From the NCBI GenBank assembly GCA_963807605.1, contig CAWECG010000004.1, positions 544,001 through 608,000 on the forward strand: a DNA stretch of 64,000 nt, read 5' to 3'. This document shows positions 42,420 to 52,339 of the stretch, one piece after another. The position numbers were made by a program, and so were the translations under genes. Under the pieces are notes generated by a model, which worked only from the letters and a program-made list of their open reading frames with translations, had not been told where the DNA came from and did no database searches. This DNA comes from Candidatus Bathyarchaeota archaeon. GTDB lineage: Archaea; Thermoproteota; Bathyarchaeia; 40CM-2-53-6; RBG-13-38-9. Position 1 is the first letter of the stretch. Every line of letters begins with the position of its first letter.

Positions 42420-43743
<1,324 letters not shown>

Positions 43744-45018: not shown

Positions 45019-45882
45019 CTATATCGGTACGCGTCTCCCCGAATGGTCGCGCTTCGTTACGCCAAGCTCCTTCATGCGCTTTAGCGTCTCGCCATCAAAG
45101 ACGGGCCCCTCCTTGCAGACTCTGTAAGAATCTATGATGCAACTTCCACACACCCCTATCCCGCACTTGATGATCCGCTCAAGACTGGCTTCGACTGGGA
45201 CTGAGTATTCAGAACCAAGATCAACGATCTTCTTGATCATCGCTTCCGGACCGCATGTATAGATGATATCATAATCATTCTTCTTTAGTTCAGCCTCAGC
45301 GACTTCAGAGGCGAGGCCCTTCACCCCGTATGCCCCATCCTCCGTCACAGGAATCACTTCGCCTCCGACCATCTGAGCGTTCAGTCGCATCCTATCCAAG
45401 AAGAGAAGCTCACCCGTGATCGGCGCTCCAATAATTGCAGTGAAGGTTTGGATATTCTTGGCAAGTAGATCTGAGAGGGGCCCAAGCGGCGCCCCTCCAG
45501 CACCACCCGCAATAATTAGGGGTTTCTTACTGCTCATTAGGGTGAAGCCTGTGCCGTAGGGGCCTCGTACCCCTATTGGTTGTCCTGTCTTCTTAGAGTG
45601 GAGGTTGTTGGTTGAGGGGCCGGCCATCTTAACAGTGATTGCGGCGAAGCCATCTTGCGTCATGGATGAGATGCTCATTGGTATCTCGTCTAGACCTGGT
45701 ATCCAGACCATTAGGAACTGTCCAGGTGTGGCTCTGGAGGAGGGTTCGTCTCTGAAGTAGACTGACTTTATCGTTGCTGTCTCGAATGTGGTTTTCTCGA
45801 TCCTCACGATTCTCGGTGTATGAATGGGCTTGGTCTGTGGTCTGGACTCTGAATGCAATTTGGCCACAGAAGACAACTGCAT
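45019..45882 (-). CDS. pyrK: Dihydroorotate dehydrogenase electron transfer subunit
   Basis: PGQFLMVWIPG, RGPYG, CGPE, CGIGVCGSC...VCKEGPVF; start approximate. Confidence 0.88.
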   Translation of the reverse strand: MQLSSVAKLHSESRPQTKPIHTPRIVRIEKTTFETATIKSVYFRDEPSSRATPGQFLMVWIPGLDEIPMSISSMTQDGFAAITVKMAGPSTNNLHSKKTGQPIGVRGPYGTGFTLMSSKKPLIIAGGAGGAPLGPLSDLLAKNIQTFTAIIGAPITGELLFLDRMRLNAQMVGGEVIPVTEDGAYGVKGLASEVAEAELKKNDYDIIYTCGPEAMIKKIVDLGSEYSVPVEASLERIIKCGIGVCGSCIIDSYRVCKEGPVFDGETLKRMKELGVTKRDHSGRRVPI

Positions 45883-45910
45883 TTGCGTGGAGTCTAAAAG
45901 TCTTTCTTGA

Positions 45911-47350
45911 TCAGTCCTGGAAGAAGTGTCTGGTCTGGCCCATCGTCTGGACATCTAGAGGCTTGATATTAACAACGACAGGGAAGTCTCTGACTATATC
46001 GCCGACGATGAGGCAGTTGTGGGCGGGAAGATCTTTAACGATCGATTTTAGACTCTCAGCATCTATCTTCGCCACTTTTGAAACCGCATCCAAGTCATGT
46101 TCATTCGTGAAGTTGAACATGAAGATGTTGTCAGCCTGTCTGTAGACGCTCTCTTGGACAGTATCGGGCGAGTTGGTCACGAAGGTTGTGAATATGCCGA
46201 GATGTCTCATCCTTGTCACTATATCGTCCCAGTAGGTCTCTCGCAGGTAGAAGTGCGCCTCCTCTGCGAAGAGGAAGACTGCTTTCAACCTCATCTCTGA
46301 GAGTTCTTCCGTCACTTTGCTTATGAATAGTTCAACTATCAGTCTTCGGCTGATTGGATGTTCATCTTTCATGTTGATGACGTAGGCGTGGCCTTCATTC
46401 ATTTTCTTCTCAAAGGTGCTGAAGTCGAATGCTTGGGACTGATCGTTGGTGAAGAGTTCTAGATCCAGCAGGGTGTTGAATCTTGAGTAGATGGCTTCTC
46501 TGACGCTTTCGTGGCATGGGAATCTCCTGATGGAATCGTTGAGCGAATCGAGGTTTAGATTTCCATTTCTCTCAAGCTCATTCCACATTCTAGAGAAGAC
46601 CTTTGACGAGGTCCTGGGAAGGTCTAGGGCGTAGATCATGGTGTTAAGAAATGTCTTCAGACCAACCCCTGCTAAGCTGAACCTGAGGTTCTGGCCTGAT
46701 TTCAGAACGGAGATCTTATCTGCCACAGCATTAGGCTCGTCATTCTTTCCGCGGCCTATGTTTACATATTCACCGTTGATGTCGATTATCAGACATGGGG
46801 CTCCGTTCTGGACTAAACTTAATATGAGCAACTTAGAGAGATGTGACTTTCCTACTCCCTTCTTTCCGGTTATGATGTTCAGCCTCCCGTCGAGCATCTT
46901 CACATCTACTGTAAGGGAGTCTGACCTTGTTCTTCCAAGGGTGACGGGTCTTTTCCCATCCGTCGTCGAGGCCAACTTCTCGATCGGGTAAGGGACTATT
47001 CTCGAGGTTGTTCTTGATGGGAGCCATGATGCTTCTGTCTTGGCTTTTCCGCCTTCAATCGCGCCCCTGATCTTGCAAACGAGTAGTTTAGTGTCTTTCA
47101 AGACAGCGATCTGAGATGAGATGTTGAATGGATCATAATCACATCCTTGAACCGAATCCTCAGTCATAGCGTCCCTAAGTATATCTTCAAGGATGCCGGG
47201 CAGATTTGCGAATTGAATATCTATTACCTGGACCATGAGTCCCTTCTTCAGCTTCTTATCATCGATAAGCAGGTAGTCACCCTTCTCGATCATCTCTTCC
47301 GGTGAACATATGATCTGTACAGTATCGCCCTGTTTCTTGTAGATCTTCAG
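45911..47350 (-). CDS. HerA/FtsK-family ATPase
   Basis: Walker A GKKGVGKS, DINGEY, Walker B LFAEEAH, MRHLG; frame open to CTG 47350 with GGAGG upstream. Confidence 0.88.
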   Translation of the reverse strand: MKIYKKQGDTVQIICSPEEMIEKGDYLLIDDKKLKKGLMVQVIDIQFANLPGILEDILRDAMTEDSVQGCDYDPFNISSQIAVLKDTKLLVCKIRGAIEGGKAKTEASWLPSRTTSRIVPYPIEKLASTTDGKRPVTLGRTRSDSLTVDVKMLDGRLNIITGKKGVGKSHLSKLLILSLVQNGAPCLIIDINGEYVNIGRGKNDEPNAVADKISVLKSGQNLRFSLAGVGLKTFLNTMIYALDLPRTSSKVFSRMWNELERNGNLNLDSLNDSIRRFPCHESVREAIYSRFNTLLDLELFTNDQSQAFDFSTFEKKMNEGHAYVINMKDEHPISRRLIVELFISKVTEELSEMRLKAVFLFAEEAHFYLRETYWDDIVTRMRHLGIFTTFVTNSPDTVQESVYRQADNIFMFNFTNEHDLDAVSKVAKIDAESLKSIVKDLPAHNCLIVGDIVRDFPVVVNIKPLDVQTMGQTRHFFQD

Positions 47351-48466
47351 TCAAGCCGCCTCCATCGATGTGCCGTAGGGACCGAAGAGGGATCTTCTGA
47401 GGCTAAACCTAGGCGCGAGTCGGAGCCCGTACTCTATCGACAGATGCCTCTGAATAGCCAAGATCTCATTCGCTGTGAAGGTTGAGAGAATATGTGCCAG
47501 CCTGAGTGTCTCCGGATAGCCTTGTTCGAGAACGTCTGTGTTAATCAGGCGCCCCATGGCTGTAAGCCCCAGTTCTTCAGGCACTTGGCGATCAATATCG
47601 ACTCTGAACGGAAGGCCCTGTGCGGCTAGTTTCGCTACGTAGACTCTTCCCATCAACCTGACAGGGGTCGAAGGAAATTGCGGAGCTATCAGTTTATCAA
47701 TATTCAATATGCACGGAGGTTTTGCCCTATCCAAGAGTCTAGTTATCCTCTTGCCGGAGAAGCAAAGTCTTGTCTCCTTTGAGAAGGCAACTGCCACGTT
47801 GCCATTCTCTCTTGAGCTGTTAAGAAGATCCTCGACACAAGCCGCTGGGTTGTCTGGCGTACCGGCGGTTAGAGAGCCATCCAAAAGGACTATTCCCTGT
47901 GAAAGGCTTGAGCAGGCGAATCTCTGCATCCATCTCTCCAGTGTATTTCTAAGCCTCGCGAGCAAGCGTTCAGTCACGGGCGACCATGCCGAGTATGAGA
48001 GACCTTGATGCGTGTGTGATCGCTTGTTGAGAAACCTAGCGATTGAGTCGTTGAGGTGGAAGGTGAGCGGTCCACATCTGGTAAAGTTGTAGCCTGATCC
48101 TTCCCTCCATACGAGAGCTCCTCTAATGGAATATATGAACCCCTCCTCAGATTCTCCAACCCTTACGCTTGAGACGTCGACTGCAGCAACAGGACAGCTC
48201 CCTTTGACGACTGGCAGCGGCCTTGGTTCATCGCTTATCGGCGTGTTTGTCAGGTCTACGTGAGGATCCTCCTCGACTTCCTCTTCTAAGCTAACCTCGA
48301 CTGTTGAGACTTCTCTAGGTTCAAAGAATCCGCCGTTGATCGTACGCATCGATTTGCTGCTCAGATCGAGGAGGAATTCTGGAAGCAGTGTCGTTTTTGA
48401 TTCTTCAAAGAGTAATCTACTTATCTTTGAATCTTCAAATTCTATGCCTTGGGTGCGGTGTGTCAG
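47351..48466 (-). CDS. NurA-family nuclease
   Basis: AAVDVS, VLLDGSL, AFSKET, GYPETLRLAH; frame open to CTG 48466 (first ATG 48349). Confidence 0.85.
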   Translation of the reverse strand: MTHRTQGIEFEDSKISRLLFEESKTTLLPEFLLDLSSKSMRTINGGFFEPREVSTVEVSLEEEVEEDPHVDLTNTPISDEPRPLPVVKGSCPVAAVDVSSVRVGESEEGFIYSIRGALVWREGSGYNFTRCGPLTFHLNDSIARFLNKRSHTHQGLSYSAWSPVTERLLARLRNTLERWMQRFACSSLSQGIVLLDGSLTAGTPDNPAACVEDLLNSSRENGNVAVAFSKETRLCFSGKRITRLLDRAKPPCILNIDKLIAPQFPSTPVRLMGRVYVAKLAAQGLPFRVDIDRQVPEELGLTAMGRLINTDVLEQGYPETLRLAHILSTFTANEILAIQRHLSIEYGLRLAPRFSLRRSLFGPYGTSMEAA

Positions 48467-48536
48467 TTATTTCCCCCCTGTGGGAGTTTGCCCTCCAAAC
48501 TCCTGTGGCCGCCGCACCTACTCGCGCTCGTGGCAG

Positions 48537-49079
48537 TTAACTGCCAGGCTTGCGGCCTCCTTCGAGGTTTCTATCTCCGGCATCCCCCAGGGTCTTTAGA
48601 GTCTCTTGGACCTCTCTGGTTCCGGCTGCTGTGAGCCTGTAGCTGCCTTTTTCTACACGTTCTACTATCCCGGCTTTGCTCATCTCGGTCAGCGTATTCT
48701 GGATGGTTTTCTGAGCTTTCCCTATTGCCTTGGTTATCTCCTCCAACTGTACGTCATCTGATACCTTCTTTCCCAGTTTGAGGGCTACTTGGGCCGCAAG
48801 CAGGATCGTTGCTACAGCCTGGTCTGTGGAGAGGTCTGATCTCAACAGTATCGGCTGGCCGTCGCGTGTCAAGTTGACGAAAGCTGATATCTCCTCAAGG
48901 AGCGCGAGGTAGTCTGGACTGTAGATCAATTTTGAGGCAATGTCGTAGGCAGGATAGATCTCTGCTATGTATTGGCTTATTGCCCTGAGGACCTTTTCAG
49001 GTTCGCCTTCTATGGTATGTTTGAATCCTCCATGCTCTATTTGGACTTTCAATTTTGATTCTTGACTCATCTTTCTCAT
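48537..49079 (-). CDS. Winged-helix protein, paralog 4
   Basis: N-terminal KVQIEHGGFKHTIEG, LTRDG, C-terminal TLTEMSKAGIVERVEKGSYRLTAAG. Confidence 0.8.
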   Translation of the reverse strand: MRKMSQESKLKVQIEHGGFKHTIEGEPEKVLRAISQYIAEIYPAYDIASKLIYSPDYLALLEEISAFVNLTRDGQPILLRSDLSTDQAVATILLAAQVALKLGKKVSDDVQLEEITKAIGKAQKTIQNTLTEMSKAGIVERVEKGSYRLTAAGTREVQETLKTLGDAGDRNLEGGRKPGS

Positions 49080-49080
49080 C

Positions 49081-49578
49081 TCACGGAGTGAGTTTGGGTA
49101 GGATGTTTTGCATGAAGTTGTCAAGCCCATAGGTCGTTATCCGGTACTCGCCTTTGCCTATTCTCTCGACCAGTCCTTCTGTACACATCTCGCTTATTCT
49201 GCCGGCTACGGTTCCAGCTGTTTTCTTGGTGTAGGTTATCAGGTTACCAATCAGAGCCTTTTCGGAATCTAGATTCTTGGTGATGTAGCCGATGTGGACC
49301 TTGGCTAGGTGGAGGAGGATTAGTTCGCGGTCGGTTAGGTGTTCAGTTGGTACTATTACGACGACTCCTTCTGGTGTGAGTTTCATTATCTCGGAGCATG
49401 ATGAGAGGAGCTTCTCCTCATCCACTGTCAGCGTGAGTTTCGATATGAGCTCTAGTTTGGGAATGTTTTCTGACATGAAGCTGATCAATTCGCGGATCAC
49501 TTCGCTAGCGTCTCCTTTGATCTTCTTCTCTAGATTGTTGTATTTGATCCAGACCTCGACCGTTCTATCTTCGCTCAA
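49081..49578 (-). CDS. Winged-helix protein, paralog 3
   Basis: LTPEG, LTDRE, RISEMCTEGLVERIGKGEYRITTYG. Confidence 0.8.
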   Translation of the reverse strand: MSEDRTVEVWIKYNNLEKKIKGDASEVIRELISFMSENIPKLELISKLTLTVDEEKLLSSCSEIMKLTPEGVVVIVPTEHLTDRELILLHLAKVHIGYITKNLDSEKALIGNLITYTKKTAGTVAGRISEMCTEGLVERIGKGEYRITTYGLDNFMQNILPKLTP

Positions 49579-50044
49579 CTGGGGTCCCTCCTGGCTTCAT
49601 CGACTTGACTGTGTTTTCTACCCACTGTTTTCCTGCGACTGTGAGTTTGTAGACGTCGCCTTCCCTGTAGGCTAGGCCTTCGCGTTTGAGTTCACTGAGT
49701 CTGCTTGCAAATCCGACTGAGAGGAATCCGCTGAGGCTCAGTAGGCGGCTGAGTTCTCTCGGTCTGACACCCTGTGGATCCATCGCGTATAGAAGAATGG
49801 CAACTGCCTCGCGGTCCGTCAGCTTTTCTCTTGTGACTGTCAGCACGGGTCCTTCAGTTGTCAGTTGGACTATCCTTGAGAGGATGTCTTTCTCACCTAC
49901 GGCTGTTGACTGGGTCGAGATCATGCTATCGATGACCTCGAGCCATTCGGGAAACTCTTTGATGCGGTCTATGATCTCGTCGAAGTTTTCTCCTTCGAGT
50001 TCTATGTTACCGTAGCTTCTGTGGAGTACGAGCTTGACCTTCAA
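49565..50044 (-). CDS. Winged-helix protein, paralog 2
   Basis: GNIELEG, LTTEG, LTDRE, RLSELKREGLAYREGDVYKLTVAG. Confidence 0.8.
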   Translation of the reverse strand: MKVKLVLHRSYGNIELEGENFDEIIDRIKEFPEWLEVIDSMISTQSTAVGEKDILSRIVQLTTEGPVLTVTREKLTDREAVAILLYAMDPQGVRPRELSRLLSLSGFLSVGFASRLSELKREGLAYREGDVYKLTVAGKQWVENTVKSMKPGGTPVERR

Positions 50045-50077
50045 AGCTTTTCTGAGACTGTTGTACTATGGAAAACG

Positions 50078-50127
50078 TATATAAGGTTTGCCGTAAAGTA
50101 TGAAGTATACGTAACGTTTACAGGCAA
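50078..50127 (-). promoter_or_regulatory. BRE/TATA-like box with adjacent imperfect inverted repeat
   Basis: AAACCTTATATA on the minus strand ~35 nt before the start at 50044; TTGCCGTAAA...TTTACAGGCAA inverted repeat at 50088-50127. Confidence 0.5.
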
Positions 50128-50160
50128 CTCTGACATGGGGTTACATCCATTGTCCAAGAC

Positions 50161-50670
50161 TTATCGGAGCCTTCTCAGAACCTCATTCTCAACCCACTGC
50201 AACCCAGCGCCTGAGAGAGAATACTTACCGTTTTCAGCAACTAGCCGACCTTCCCTCCTAAGTTCACTCGCTCTGGCCCTCACTGCTTCAGGCTTCATCG
50301 TCTTCCAGCTTGAGCTGAGGATATTGCTCAGTTCATCACACTCAACGGCTGTTGGCTTAGCCGCATAGAGAATAAGTGCCAAGGCCTCCTTTGCCTTAAG
50401 AGAGTCCACTGGGATCGTCAGTCGGGGTCTGCCTTCCGGCGTGAGTTCAACAATACCTTCCAGAGAAGGCGTAACCGTGGTGCGGGTCGCCCCAAACTCG
50501 GAGAATGTCTTTTGAACAGGTTGTTGCTCAACACTTGTCTGGGGGAGGCTTTCCAGAAGCTTCTCGAAGTATTCTTTTACGTATGCAAAATCACCTTCGA
50601 GTTCAACTTCATAGTCCCCGCGTCTTATTCTGAATCTCAGGGTCTTTTCCTCGCTCAACCTTTCTCCCAT
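50161..50670 (-). CDS. Winged-helix protein, paralog 1
   Basis: RFRIRRGDYEVELEG, LTPEG, RASELRREGRLVAENGKYSLSGAG. Confidence 0.8.
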   Translation of the reverse strand: MGERLSEEKTLRFRIRRGDYEVELEGDFAYVKEYFEKLLESLPQTSVEQQPVQKTFSEFGATRTTVTPSLEGIVELTPEGRPRLTIPVDSLKAKEALALILYAAKPTAVECDELSNILSSSWKTMKPEAVRARASELRREGRLVAENGKYSLSGAGLQWVENEVLRRLR

Positions 50671-50687: not shown

Positions 50688-52339
50688 AGGCTGTCGGAAA
50701 ATTCTTCATATTGACATCTCCATATATGGGGATGGAGCGTTACCTCCGTGCGCTCTAGCCCGCCCATCATATCGGGTGGCTTCCACCCGCCAAGGCGTAT
50801 GCTTTACAGGCATAAGCCATGATAGCCGCTGCATTCTTTCCTTTGCGGCGTAGCGGGTGTGGGCTGTAAGTCGCTCTATCAAAGGCTCCACATCTTTTGC
50901 ATCCTGCATATTCATCCTTCCATCGGTGGATATGCTAGGCTTCAGATATGGATGCCCGTGATCTTGAAGTAGAATTTTCTTAACCCAGGCTTGACGTTTA
51001 CGTATGCGTCCTGCAACTGTCTTCAGCTGGTCTGGGCTGAGATGTTCCTGTAGACCAAGTGCTCGTCTGCCAAGTATGAGTGCTGCAAGCTGATGTACAC
51101 TCATCCTTGGAAAGATTGGTTTGTATTTTGCTTCGGCGACTCGACTTGTATAGGCTGCTGGAATCCCTGCTAGGATCCACTCACGCCTCAGCGCTTTTGT
51201 GGCTGCAAGTGTGATAAGCTTCTTCCGCATGAAGTTGGCTATGAGTCTGTTCGCTCCGCCATGTTCAATACCTTTGAAATCGTTCAGGTCTTCAATGACC
51301 AGCACATTAACACCAAAGAAGCTTGCCCATTTGAGAGCCTTCTCTAGAAGGTTGCTTGCAAGCCACAGTCTCTTTTCCTTGCGGGCATAGATGAGTGCTG
51401 GTTCCTTGAAGGATTTGGCTGCAATGAGGTTTCCATCGCTGTTTACTATGACCAAGTCAATATGGGTAGGATTAACATCTATTGCAACCAATCTTGTCCC
51501 AGACCAAGGTTTGATCGGTTTGTCTGAGACCTCGAAGGATACGTAACAGTCATAATTTCCGTCAGGACGTTTCACCAGACGAATGGTGTATGGTCGAGTT
51601 GGATTCTTCGCCTTGACTGGGTGAACTGGTGGAAGGGTTTGGTCGGCGATGGCGTTGAAGATTCGCAGGTACGTTTCTGGCACGTGTAGTGGGACCATAA
51701 AGTTATCATGATTTGCTCCCCAACTTCGGATGTCAAGCATGAAGTCGCCATCAATTTTGCGGATGCGTGTGTGCAGGTTGCCCTTGTTCCATCCATCCCC
51801 AACGCTTACGAGTTGTCCTCGACGCTTCATGCGCCACCTCTCCGATCCTATGTGTTTTCGTCCGCCAAACACGACCTTCGGCAACGTACCATTCTTGAGA
51901 TGTGTTTGGATTGTGGCTTTTCGTTTCTCCAGCTTTGCGATCCGCATCTCATAGCCATGCTTCTTCAATGGGTTACAGGTTCGGTTCAGCTTCTTCTGGA
52001 CTTGGCCGATCTTCCAGTTTACTTCTTGAATGTGAAGGGCCAGCAGTTCTCGCTGACTCCCAATAATGGCTTTGGCTTGGAAGATGGCGTTATTCCGCCA
52101 GAGATAATTCTGAATACCGTAACGCTCCAAAAGGATGGGTGCGACTTCTGGCTGCTTGGTTCCAGGAATAAGTTGGTTGTAGGCTGAGCGGACCATACTC
52201 TGGAATATTCGACATGCATCGTCTAGGCTTAGATTCTGTTGTGCTTTGCAGTGAACTGTGTAGAATTGCAAATCGCAGACTCACCCATAATTCTCCAGAT
52301 GGTGTTTTAAACAAATTTGTATCAATTTTCCGACAGCCT
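50688..52339 (-). mobile_element. TIR-bounded element carrying only a TnpB-like gene
   Basis: Perfect 16-bp inverted repeats AGGCTGTCGGAAAATT (50688-50703) and AATTTTCCGACAGCCT (52324-52339); no transposase, no clear TSD. Confidence 0.75.
50706..52271 (-). CDS. Large TnpB-related RuvC protein (521 aa, no zinc finger)
   Basis: VVFGGRK, KGN, RuvC-I AIDVN, RuvC-II VIEDL, AAYTS, HQLAALILGRR in the RuvC-III position. Confidence 0.82.
   Translation of the reverse strand: MQFYTVHCKAQQNLSLDDACRIFQSMVRSAYNQLIPGTKQPEVAPILLERYGIQNYLWRNNAIFQAKAIIGSQRELLALHIQEVNWKIGQVQKKLNRTCNPLKKHGYEMRIAKLEKRKATIQTHLKNGTLPKVVFGGRKHIGSERWRMKRRGQLVSVGDGWNKGNLHTRIRKIDGDFMLDIRSWGANHDNFMVPLHVPETYLRIFNAIADQTLPPVHPVKAKNPTRPYTIRLVKRPDGNYDCYVSFEVSDKPIKPWSGTRLVAIDVNPTHIDLVIVNSDGNLIAAKSFKEPALIYARKEKRLWLASNLLEKALKWASFFGVNVLVIEDLNDFKGIEHGGANRLIANFMRKKLITLAATKALRREWILAGIPAAYTSRVAEAKYKPIFPRMSVHQLAALILGRRALGLQEHLSPDQLKTVAGRIRKRQAWVKKILLQDHGHPYLKPSISTDGRMNMQDAKDVEPLIERLTAHTRYAAKERMQRLSWLMPVKHTPWRVEATRYDGRARAHGGNAPSPYMEMSI

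Follow-up and report, generated by a model that had tools for sequence, protein, structure and literature searches.

We analyzed a 64,000-nucleotide stretch of contig CAWECG010000004.1 (hereafter, the window) from Candidatus Bathyarchaeota archaeon, a metagenome-assembled genome (MAG; here G000) of the Bathyarchaeia that is 94% complete. The minus strand of the window carries a locus of six co-oriented genes, in which four genes encoding small winged-helix (wH) proteins, designated P1 to P4, are followed by genes for a NurA-type nuclease and a HerA-type ATPase, and a conserved RNA leader lies in front of nurA. Gene order and co-occurrence across archaeal genomes indicate a well-supported functional tie of the wH family to NurA-HerA. 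The features of the locus, given in the direction of transcription with lengths in amino acids (aa) or nucleotides (nt), are as follows.

50161..50670, minus strand: wH paralog P1, 169 aa, recognized as an open reading frame (ORF) and by homology; the N-terminal beta-hairpin is its best-conserved part
49565..50044, minus strand: wH paralog P2, 159 aa, recognized as an ORF and by homology
49081..49578, minus strand: wH paralog P3, 165 aa, with a predicted beta-hairpin and long helix, a helix and hairpin, and a MarR-like winged helix (residues 75-165)
48537..49130, minus strand: wH paralog P4, adjoining nurA, 197 aa when counted from the first ATG
48439..48524, minus strand: structured leader of the nurA mRNA, about 87 nt, recognized by conservation and a covariance model
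47351..48466, minus strand: NurA-type nuclease, 332 aa from the ATG at 48349 and 371 aa from a conserved start position at 48466
45911..47293, minus strand: HerA-type hexameric ATPase/translocase, 460 aa, recognized by DUF87, its motifs and a match to Sulfolobus HerA

An initial annotation, made from the letters of the sequence, had described four homologous, co-oriented wH genes followed by NurA and HerA with their main motifs intact, and BLASTP, phmmer, Pfam and the conserved residues bore this out. BLASTP aligned P1 with P2 at an E-value of 4e-18 and P3 with P4 at 5e-17, while the remaining pairs gave 1e-6 to 1e-9, and phmmer agreed; similarities so far beyond chance identify the four proteins, at the level of sequence, as true paralogs. 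The tight packing of P2 to P4 that had been described also held, with a 14-nt overlap between P2 and P3 and abutting P3 and P4 genes; the distance from P1 to P2 is 116 nt. The 187 nt that separate P4 from the first nurA ATG are not a plain spacer; they hold the conserved RNA leader and the 5' end of nurA. The true start of P4 is probably Met21 at 49070, giving 177 aa, a choice favored by the orthologue alignments.

Predicted folds and motifs of the encoded proteins

Searches of the wH proteins against Pfam, NCBIfam, PADLOC and PHROGs returned no meaningful score, with generic winged-helix models below cut-off as the only matches; the best Pfam match of P4 was HVO_A0261_N (7.9e-6), again below cut-off. 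PHROGs returned nothing beyond generic regulator and terminase-ATPase matches. The family is small, comprising 325 representative clusters among the 1.8 billion representative proteins searched. The AlphaFold2 (AF2) model of P3, built on 117 sequences, has a pLDDT of 93.9 and consists of a beta-hairpin (residues 7-22), a 25-residue helix, a short helix, a second hairpin that in the model bears the conserved T-x-E-G motif, and a MarR-like winged helix (residues 75-165). In a VIA structure search, matches covered residues 75-165 only; the top one was AF1382 (2QVO; Z 11.0), followed by dozens of MarR-type chains with Z of 8.5-10, and the matched region accordingly has a predicted MarR-like winged-helix fold, i.e., a three-helix bundle with a beta-hairpin wing. 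Full-length P3 searches (Foldseek against the PDB, VIA wide, and the ESM Atlas) turned up nothing beyond generic winged-helix proteins and unnamed clusters of the family itself, and none of the Foldseek matches spanned the whole protein; the N-terminal ~75 residues, examined only within these full-length searches, had no structural match. Each of the four paralogs combines an acidic N-terminal half (isoelectric point, pI, ~4.8) with a basic winged-helix half (pI 8.0-9.8).

NurA passes the Pfam NurA model (PF09376) marginally, with 23.8 bits against a cut-off of 21 and an E-value of 3.5e-5, and a six-frame search of the whole genome with the Pfam NurA model did not recover it at E<=0.001. Its AF2 model (pLDDT 83.4) found Sulfolobus NurA as the top Foldseek match (2YGK; 5.5e-10), followed by 8WFD_G (TdpB), 9X1L_G and 7F6D_G, with EndoV and Argonaute PIWI domains behind; the matches include Thermococcus and Deinococcus NurA structures. 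Across 55 orthologues D58, D157, K191 and H286 never vary, E138 is at least 90% conserved, and the LLDGSL and GYPE..AH motifs align with Sulfolobus NurA. Model and alignment point to a divergent NurA with an RNase H-like NurA fold and an intact catalytic D/E/D/K/H set. HerA matches DUF87 with 53.1 bits (cut-off 23.2; E 6e-14) and has invariant Walker A (G143/K145/G148/K149/S150), Walker B (E344/E345) and arginine-motif residues (R361/R363 in TRMRH). Among solved relatives its sequence lies closest to Sulfolobus HerA (4D2I; 1.5e-20), compared with 5e-14 for Sir2-HerA and 1.6e-7 for TdpA.

HerA belongs to the FtsK-HerA family of pumping ATPases, and the locus could be read as a DNA segregation or transfer device, with HerA as the DNA pump and the wH proteins as centromere-like binders. 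For the P3 winged helix, Foldseek ranks first AspA, the centromere-binding protein of plasmid pNOB8 (E 1.3e-3; TM by target 0.66-0.72). P4 shows weak similarity to the Kite-type proteins MksE (E 0.0098) and JetB (E 0.013), the Foldseek matches of P3 to MukE have a root-mean-square deviation (rmsd) of 12 Å, and the locus contains no SMC or kleisin gene. The AspA and MksE matches are, however, weak and involve the generic winged helix only, the partner is always a nuclease with an intact active site, and no ParA-type gene or membrane component was seen at the locus. We regard a segregation device as very improbable.

Distribution and genomic context

A profile of the four paralogs was used for the family searches. 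It detected the wH family in 34 of 41 close relatives and in 168 of 201 Bathyarchaeia genomes, including 109 of the 120 good genomes (91%). Across the Thermoproteota the family occurs in 134 of 301 genomes and is clustered in whole families, among them the Caldarchaeaceae (12/12, with Caldarchaeum subterraneum) and Calditenuaceae; three large families are nearly or wholly blank (3/45, all weak matches, 0/23 and 0/20). Of the 41 genomes searched, G000 among them, 37 have NurA and HerA, and the other four (G004, G007, G010 and G015) lack wH, NurA and HerA together.

For the linkage count, 80 Bathyarchaeia loci were fetched by HerA alignment, and 53 of them have the order wH (one to four co-directional genes)-nurA-herA. 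Where upstream DNA of 1.5 kb or more was available, 52 of 62 loci contain a wH gene, and in most relatives nurA and herA are spaced by 0-6 nt or overlap. The same order is found outside Bathyarchaeia, in Caldarchaeales and other Nitrososphaeria-type lineages; the complete genome of Caldarchaeum subterraneum has a simple version with two wH copies. In three further families we observed a second configuration, in which the wH genes are divergent from a different, more canonical NurA-HerA pair: at these loci (L047, L051, L052, L055 and L056) three wH genes and a short wH relative occupy one strand, and the opposite strand encodes a NurA of 382-412 aa (Pfam 65 and 52 bits) and a HerA of 514-526 aa. 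One lineage encodes a natural HerA-coiled coil-wH fusion protein (P0242). The linkage on which the initial annotation built its proposal is thus found at the 52/62 loci, in Caldarchaeum, in the divergent configuration and in the fusion.

The shorter wH relative, of 134-151 aa, is very weakly similar to the family (E 1e-5 to 1e-7) and was seen at L056:8528-8971, L047:9068-9523, L101:4114-4563, L053:6122-6553 and other places. Its gene immediately precedes nurA in several lineages, often in divergent orientation; it does not occur in this window.

A tree of 161 wH members yielded four orthogroups (support 0.80-0.999) grouped as ((P1,P2),(P3,P4)), with 22 members in P1 (support 0.999), 28 in P2 (support 0.935), 51 in P3 and 60 in P4. 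Orthogroup membership tracks array position, and members of the P4 orthogroup are mostly those nearest nurA. The P1 orthogroup is restricted to arrays of three or four copies and is encoded elsewhere in some families; in one family an unlinked fourth copy lies among ribosomal-protein and metabolic genes (two genomes). Copy number ranges from 1 to 5 across Bathyarchaeia, and the phylogeny indicates that the four copies arose by old, ordered duplications.

These results bear on whether the wH proteins are ordinary transcription factors, regulating the nurA-herA operon or other genes, rather than parts of a machine. Their C-terminal half has a MarR-like winged helix, the fold most often seen in archaeal regulators; they match TrmB, HxlR, Csa3 and AbiEi-type helix-turn-helix (HTH) models weakly; some family members are named DtxR-type regulators in the source annotations; and their genes lie upstream of the would-be targets. 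Plain regulators would nevertheless fit poorly with two to four paralogs kept in fixed order across class-level divergence, with co-directional genes in overlapping or abutting frames, and with the existence of a HerA fusion. The family is also almost confined to genomes with this NurA-HerA, both being missing together, and in P1 it is the N-terminal module, not the winged helix, that is best conserved. We consider the regulator explanation quite unlikely, less so than a segregation device.

Elsewhere in the source genome no second NurA was found, leaving the NurA of the locus as the only one. Two Mre11/Rad50-like pairs (Metallophos plus Rad50/SbcC-like) are encoded on contig C3 at ~365 kb (L039) and on contig C1 at ~515 kb (L041), neither of which adjoins herA or nurA, and no Rad50 or SMC-type ATPase exceeded its family cut-off within the window. 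The description of NurA-HerA as stand-alone was therefore correct, the Mre11/Rad50-like pairs lying on other contigs, and the locus is not a canonical mre11-rad50-herA-nurA operon.

A second HerA-type ATPase of 619 aa, unrelated to the HerA of the locus, is encoded at L030:9206-12914 (contig C3 of G000, ~714-718 kb) and overlaps by 20 nt the gene of an upstream 622-aa protein without a Pfam match. An M28 peptidase gene separates this pair from an XPB-Bax1 (DUF790) pair. We rejected the second HerA as a member of a canonical repair operon; with the 622-aa protein it may constitute another HerA-plus-effector system.

Two neighboring features provide context for the locus.

45019..45954, minus strand: PyrK-like flavoprotein gene, with Pfam DHODB_Fe-S_bind, directly 3' of herA
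50688..52339, minus strand: TnpB-carrying inverted-repeat transposon, whose 521-aa ORF has no Pfam match

In ~18 related loci pyrK is likewise co-directional with herA and directly downstream of it. The other outer neighbors are also metabolic, namely a 3-hydroxyisobutyrate-dehydrogenase-like gene and an ornithine decarboxylase gene. The TnpB transposon lies 18 nt upstream of the P1 start; in the relative L067 a dehydrogenase gene lies directly upstream of P1, where the window has the transposon in between. The transposon may have displaced the native promoter of the wH array. An IS605-type OrfB/TnpB gene of 398 aa lies at 42437-43633, ~1.4 kb downstream of the PyrK-like gene. With TnpB-type genes upstream of P1 and downstream of the PyrK-like gene, both sides of the region are flanked by mobile elements.

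A structured leader RNA in front of nurA

The 187-nt interval that separates P4 from the first nurA ATG exceeds the flanking genes in nucleotide conservation. It contains a structured leader RNA, newly found here, that encloses the ribosome-binding-like tract and the start of nurA. In leader helix P1, an invariant GGUGCGG (48518-48512) can pair with an invariant CCGCACC (48458-48452). Between its strands lies leader hairpin P2, in which 48503-48498 pairs with 48488-48483, and 3' of this hairpin is a G-rich ribosome-binding-like tract (48478-48473), with the start position of nurA six nt further. A third hairpin at ~48440-48417 was plausible in close relatives and was dropped, since it is not kept in more distant ones.

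The start position (48466-48464) reads CTG in the window, ATG, GTG or TTG in order-level relatives, and TTG in three close relatives. Before its first ATG, the nurA frame has 39 further open codons, and the residues just before that ATG, L-P-x-x-F-x-E-L-S, are conserved among the Bathyarchaeia orthologues, with a similar L-L-K-A-F-S in Caldarchaeales. Because of the open frame and this conserved motif, the NurA protein appears to start upstream of the first ATG, almost certainly at CTG 48466. The 3' strand of leader helix P1 coincides with nurA codons 3-5 and the first base of codon 6; these are invariant even at wobble positions, whereas the codons that follow show free variation.

A covariance model of the leader (R1) scored 94.6 bits in the window and had 31 matches across related loci totalling 1.18 Mb, no locus having more than one and every match lying before nurA; in the whole source genome it had a single match. 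The leader was detected in 24 of 151 Bathyarchaeia genomes, 23 of which belong to the order of the source genome. Compensatory double changes occur in 5 of the 6 pairs of leader hairpin P2, whose pairing is kept in 94.8% of cells compared with 84.9% for shuffled and 37-61% for slid controls, and none of 500 shuffles reached the observed score. RNAalifold on a MAFFT alignment recovered the invariant leader helix P1 only, and the hairpin emerged with the covariance-model alignment. Searches with Rfam assigned the leader to no family (best scores 14-19 bits, against gathering scores of 31-70), and the folding energy of the entire 187-nt stretch was no better than that of shuffled sequences (z -1.3).

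Just 3' of the leader, inside the extended nurA frame, lies GAUAAGUAG (48417-48425, minus strand), whose core AUAAG is invariant in 23 of 23 aligned relatives. This element could represent a promoter or some other signal in the RNA.

The stop codon of P4 is 18 nt upstream of leader helix P1, and its closeness raises the idea of translational coupling between P4 and NurA: ribosomes finishing P4 would open the leader helix and thereby permit translation of nurA.

Interpretation and comparison with known systems

In archaea, HerA-NurA is taken to be the minimal engine of end resection. To our knowledge, work on its partners has been confined to a few thermophiles, in which HerA-NurA is encoded with Mre11-Rad50. 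We lean, with somewhat better than even confidence, toward the locus being a lineage-specific archaeal HerA-NurA translocase-nuclease with wH accessory subunits that has been inherited mostly vertically. HerA identity drops with taxonomic rank, from 88% within the genus to 77-86% within the family and 49-65% within the order; together with the stable pyrK neighbor and the unlinked wH copy among housekeeping genes, this fits a vertically inherited core locus.

We infer that the wH proteins are DNA-binding accessory subunits that would form a hetero-oligomer, would physically associate with NurA-HerA and might serve in repair, possibly as a loader. In this view, DNA ends or damaged or branched DNA would be gripped by the winged-helix half, and contacts with the other paralogs and with the NurA-HerA ring would fall to the acidic half. 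The DNA would next pass through NurA and HerA and be digested 5'->3', much as when ends are resected in recombinational repair, with Mre11-Rad50 acting from its separate loci and the putative translational coupling linking nurA expression to P4. A complex prediction of P1+P2+P3+P4 (orthologue alignments, P4 as partner), run without controls, gave ipSAE values of 0.18 and 0.00, compared with a mark of 0.32, which speak neither for nor against binding.

The most serious competitor, which we nonetheless judge unlikely, is a defence system in which NurA-HerA degrades invader DNA, as TdpAB or a HerA-plus-effector system would, and the wH paralogs sense foreign or unmodified DNA. Several observations that count against an accessory-subunit repair machine also speak for defence. 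The top PADLOC match of HerA is mad8, a defence-system ATPase model (1e-18), and several HerA models of anti-phage systems come next. Some metagenomic proteins (P0128, P0200, P0208 and P0242) carry the wH core, lacking the first hairpin, in fusion with a Ser/Thr kinase, AbiTii, a CAP12/Pycsar-type TIR or HerA. Fusions to TIR, AbiTii and kinase domains are a pattern typical of conflict systems, and these suggest that the core is a reusable nucleic-acid-sensing module. The module is dispensable in some lineages, because four close relatives lack the whole of it. The defence reading can further draw on TdpB of TdpAB as the second-best structural match of the NurA model and on the transposons that flank the locus. 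Further points count against the accessory-subunit machine. HerA falls far below the NCBIfam equivalog cut-offs (22.7 bits against 800 for HerA_Thermprot and 13.4 against 970 for helicase_HerA), scores that place it on a separate branch rather than among equivalogs of the characterized repair HerA; the wH gene is apart from nurA-herA in ~10 of the 62 loci and in some genomes (e.g., G114). For the leader, the start position of nurA is TCG in six close relatives and CTG in the window, and the pairing of leader helix P1 derives from invariance and not from covariation, because the helix never varies.

Several points argue against defence: the locus is single-copy in 91% of the good Bathyarchaeia genomes, its HerA identity follows taxonomy, its pyrK neighbor is stable and its flanking genes are metabolic. 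PADLOC matched no complete system at the locus, as only the ATPase scored, NurA had no match above noise and the wH proteins matched generic HTH models only, also not above noise. HerA is nearer to Sulfolobus HerA than to TdpA or Sir2-HerA, and the genome offers no other NurA for repair.

A wider version of the accessory-subunit proposal can be put forward only tentatively, as we hold it to be improbable in full. It would see in the wH proteins a hetero-oligomeric sensor of DNA ends or damage that docks on the NurA-HerA ring and assumes the recruiting role of Mre11-Rad50 in the textbook archaeal pathway, in the leader a device that licenses nuclease synthesis only together with the sensor, and in the whole a distinct class-wide machine of Bathyarchaeia and Aigarchaeota. 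In a very abundant, uncultured class of archaea and in the Aigarchaeota, HerA-NurA is diverged and goes consistently with a protein family that has no name; in one order it also goes with an RNA element, likewise unnamed. Should the wH proteins be subunits, they would reveal what targets or restrains the nuclease-motor in these lineages. The two-copy version of Caldarchaeum subterraneum gives a defined four-gene set, as an alternative to the six-gene one, for expression and assay.

Each component of the locus can be compared with a known system. The leader resembles leaders that occlude the ribosome-binding site, such as ribosomal-protein leaders and translational-coupling hairpins, in that a helix encloses the G-rich tract and start codon and an upstream stop codon lies 18 nt before the helix; unlike these, it belongs to no Rfam family and occurs only before nurA, nearly only in one Bathyarchaeia order. 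Residues 75-165 of P3 superpose on MarR/AF1382-type proteins, including AspA of pNOB8, with Z of 9-11 and rmsd of 1.5-2.8 Å, and share their basic character, whereas the wH family adds ~75 N-terminal residues, is tied to NurA-HerA and reaches the cut-off of no Pfam family.

TdpAB (8WFD/8WET), like the present locus, combines a HerA-like hexamer with a NurA-like nuclease in the absence of Mre11-Rad50, and TdpB ranks directly behind Sulfolobus NurA as a structural match. In contrast to TdpAB, the distribution here is core-like and vertical, and the sequence match to TdpA is much weaker than that to Sulfolobus HerA. We know of no counterpart of the wH genes in TdpAB.

The HerA-NurA reviews and structural papers that were searched (PMC13748450, PMC3326311, PMC9960219, PMC12977600 and others) make no mention of wH accessory genes or a leader. 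With the archaeal HerA-NurA end-resection complex of Sulfolobus, Pyrococcus and Thermococcus (4D2I, 2YGK and 9X1L), the locus has in common the predicted NurA fold, the catalytic D/E/D/K/H residues, the HerA motifs and the nurA-herA order. It differs in that both proteins are very divergent, that they are not encoded with mre11-rad50, and that one to four wH genes precede them, joined in this Bathyarchaeia order by the leader RNA.

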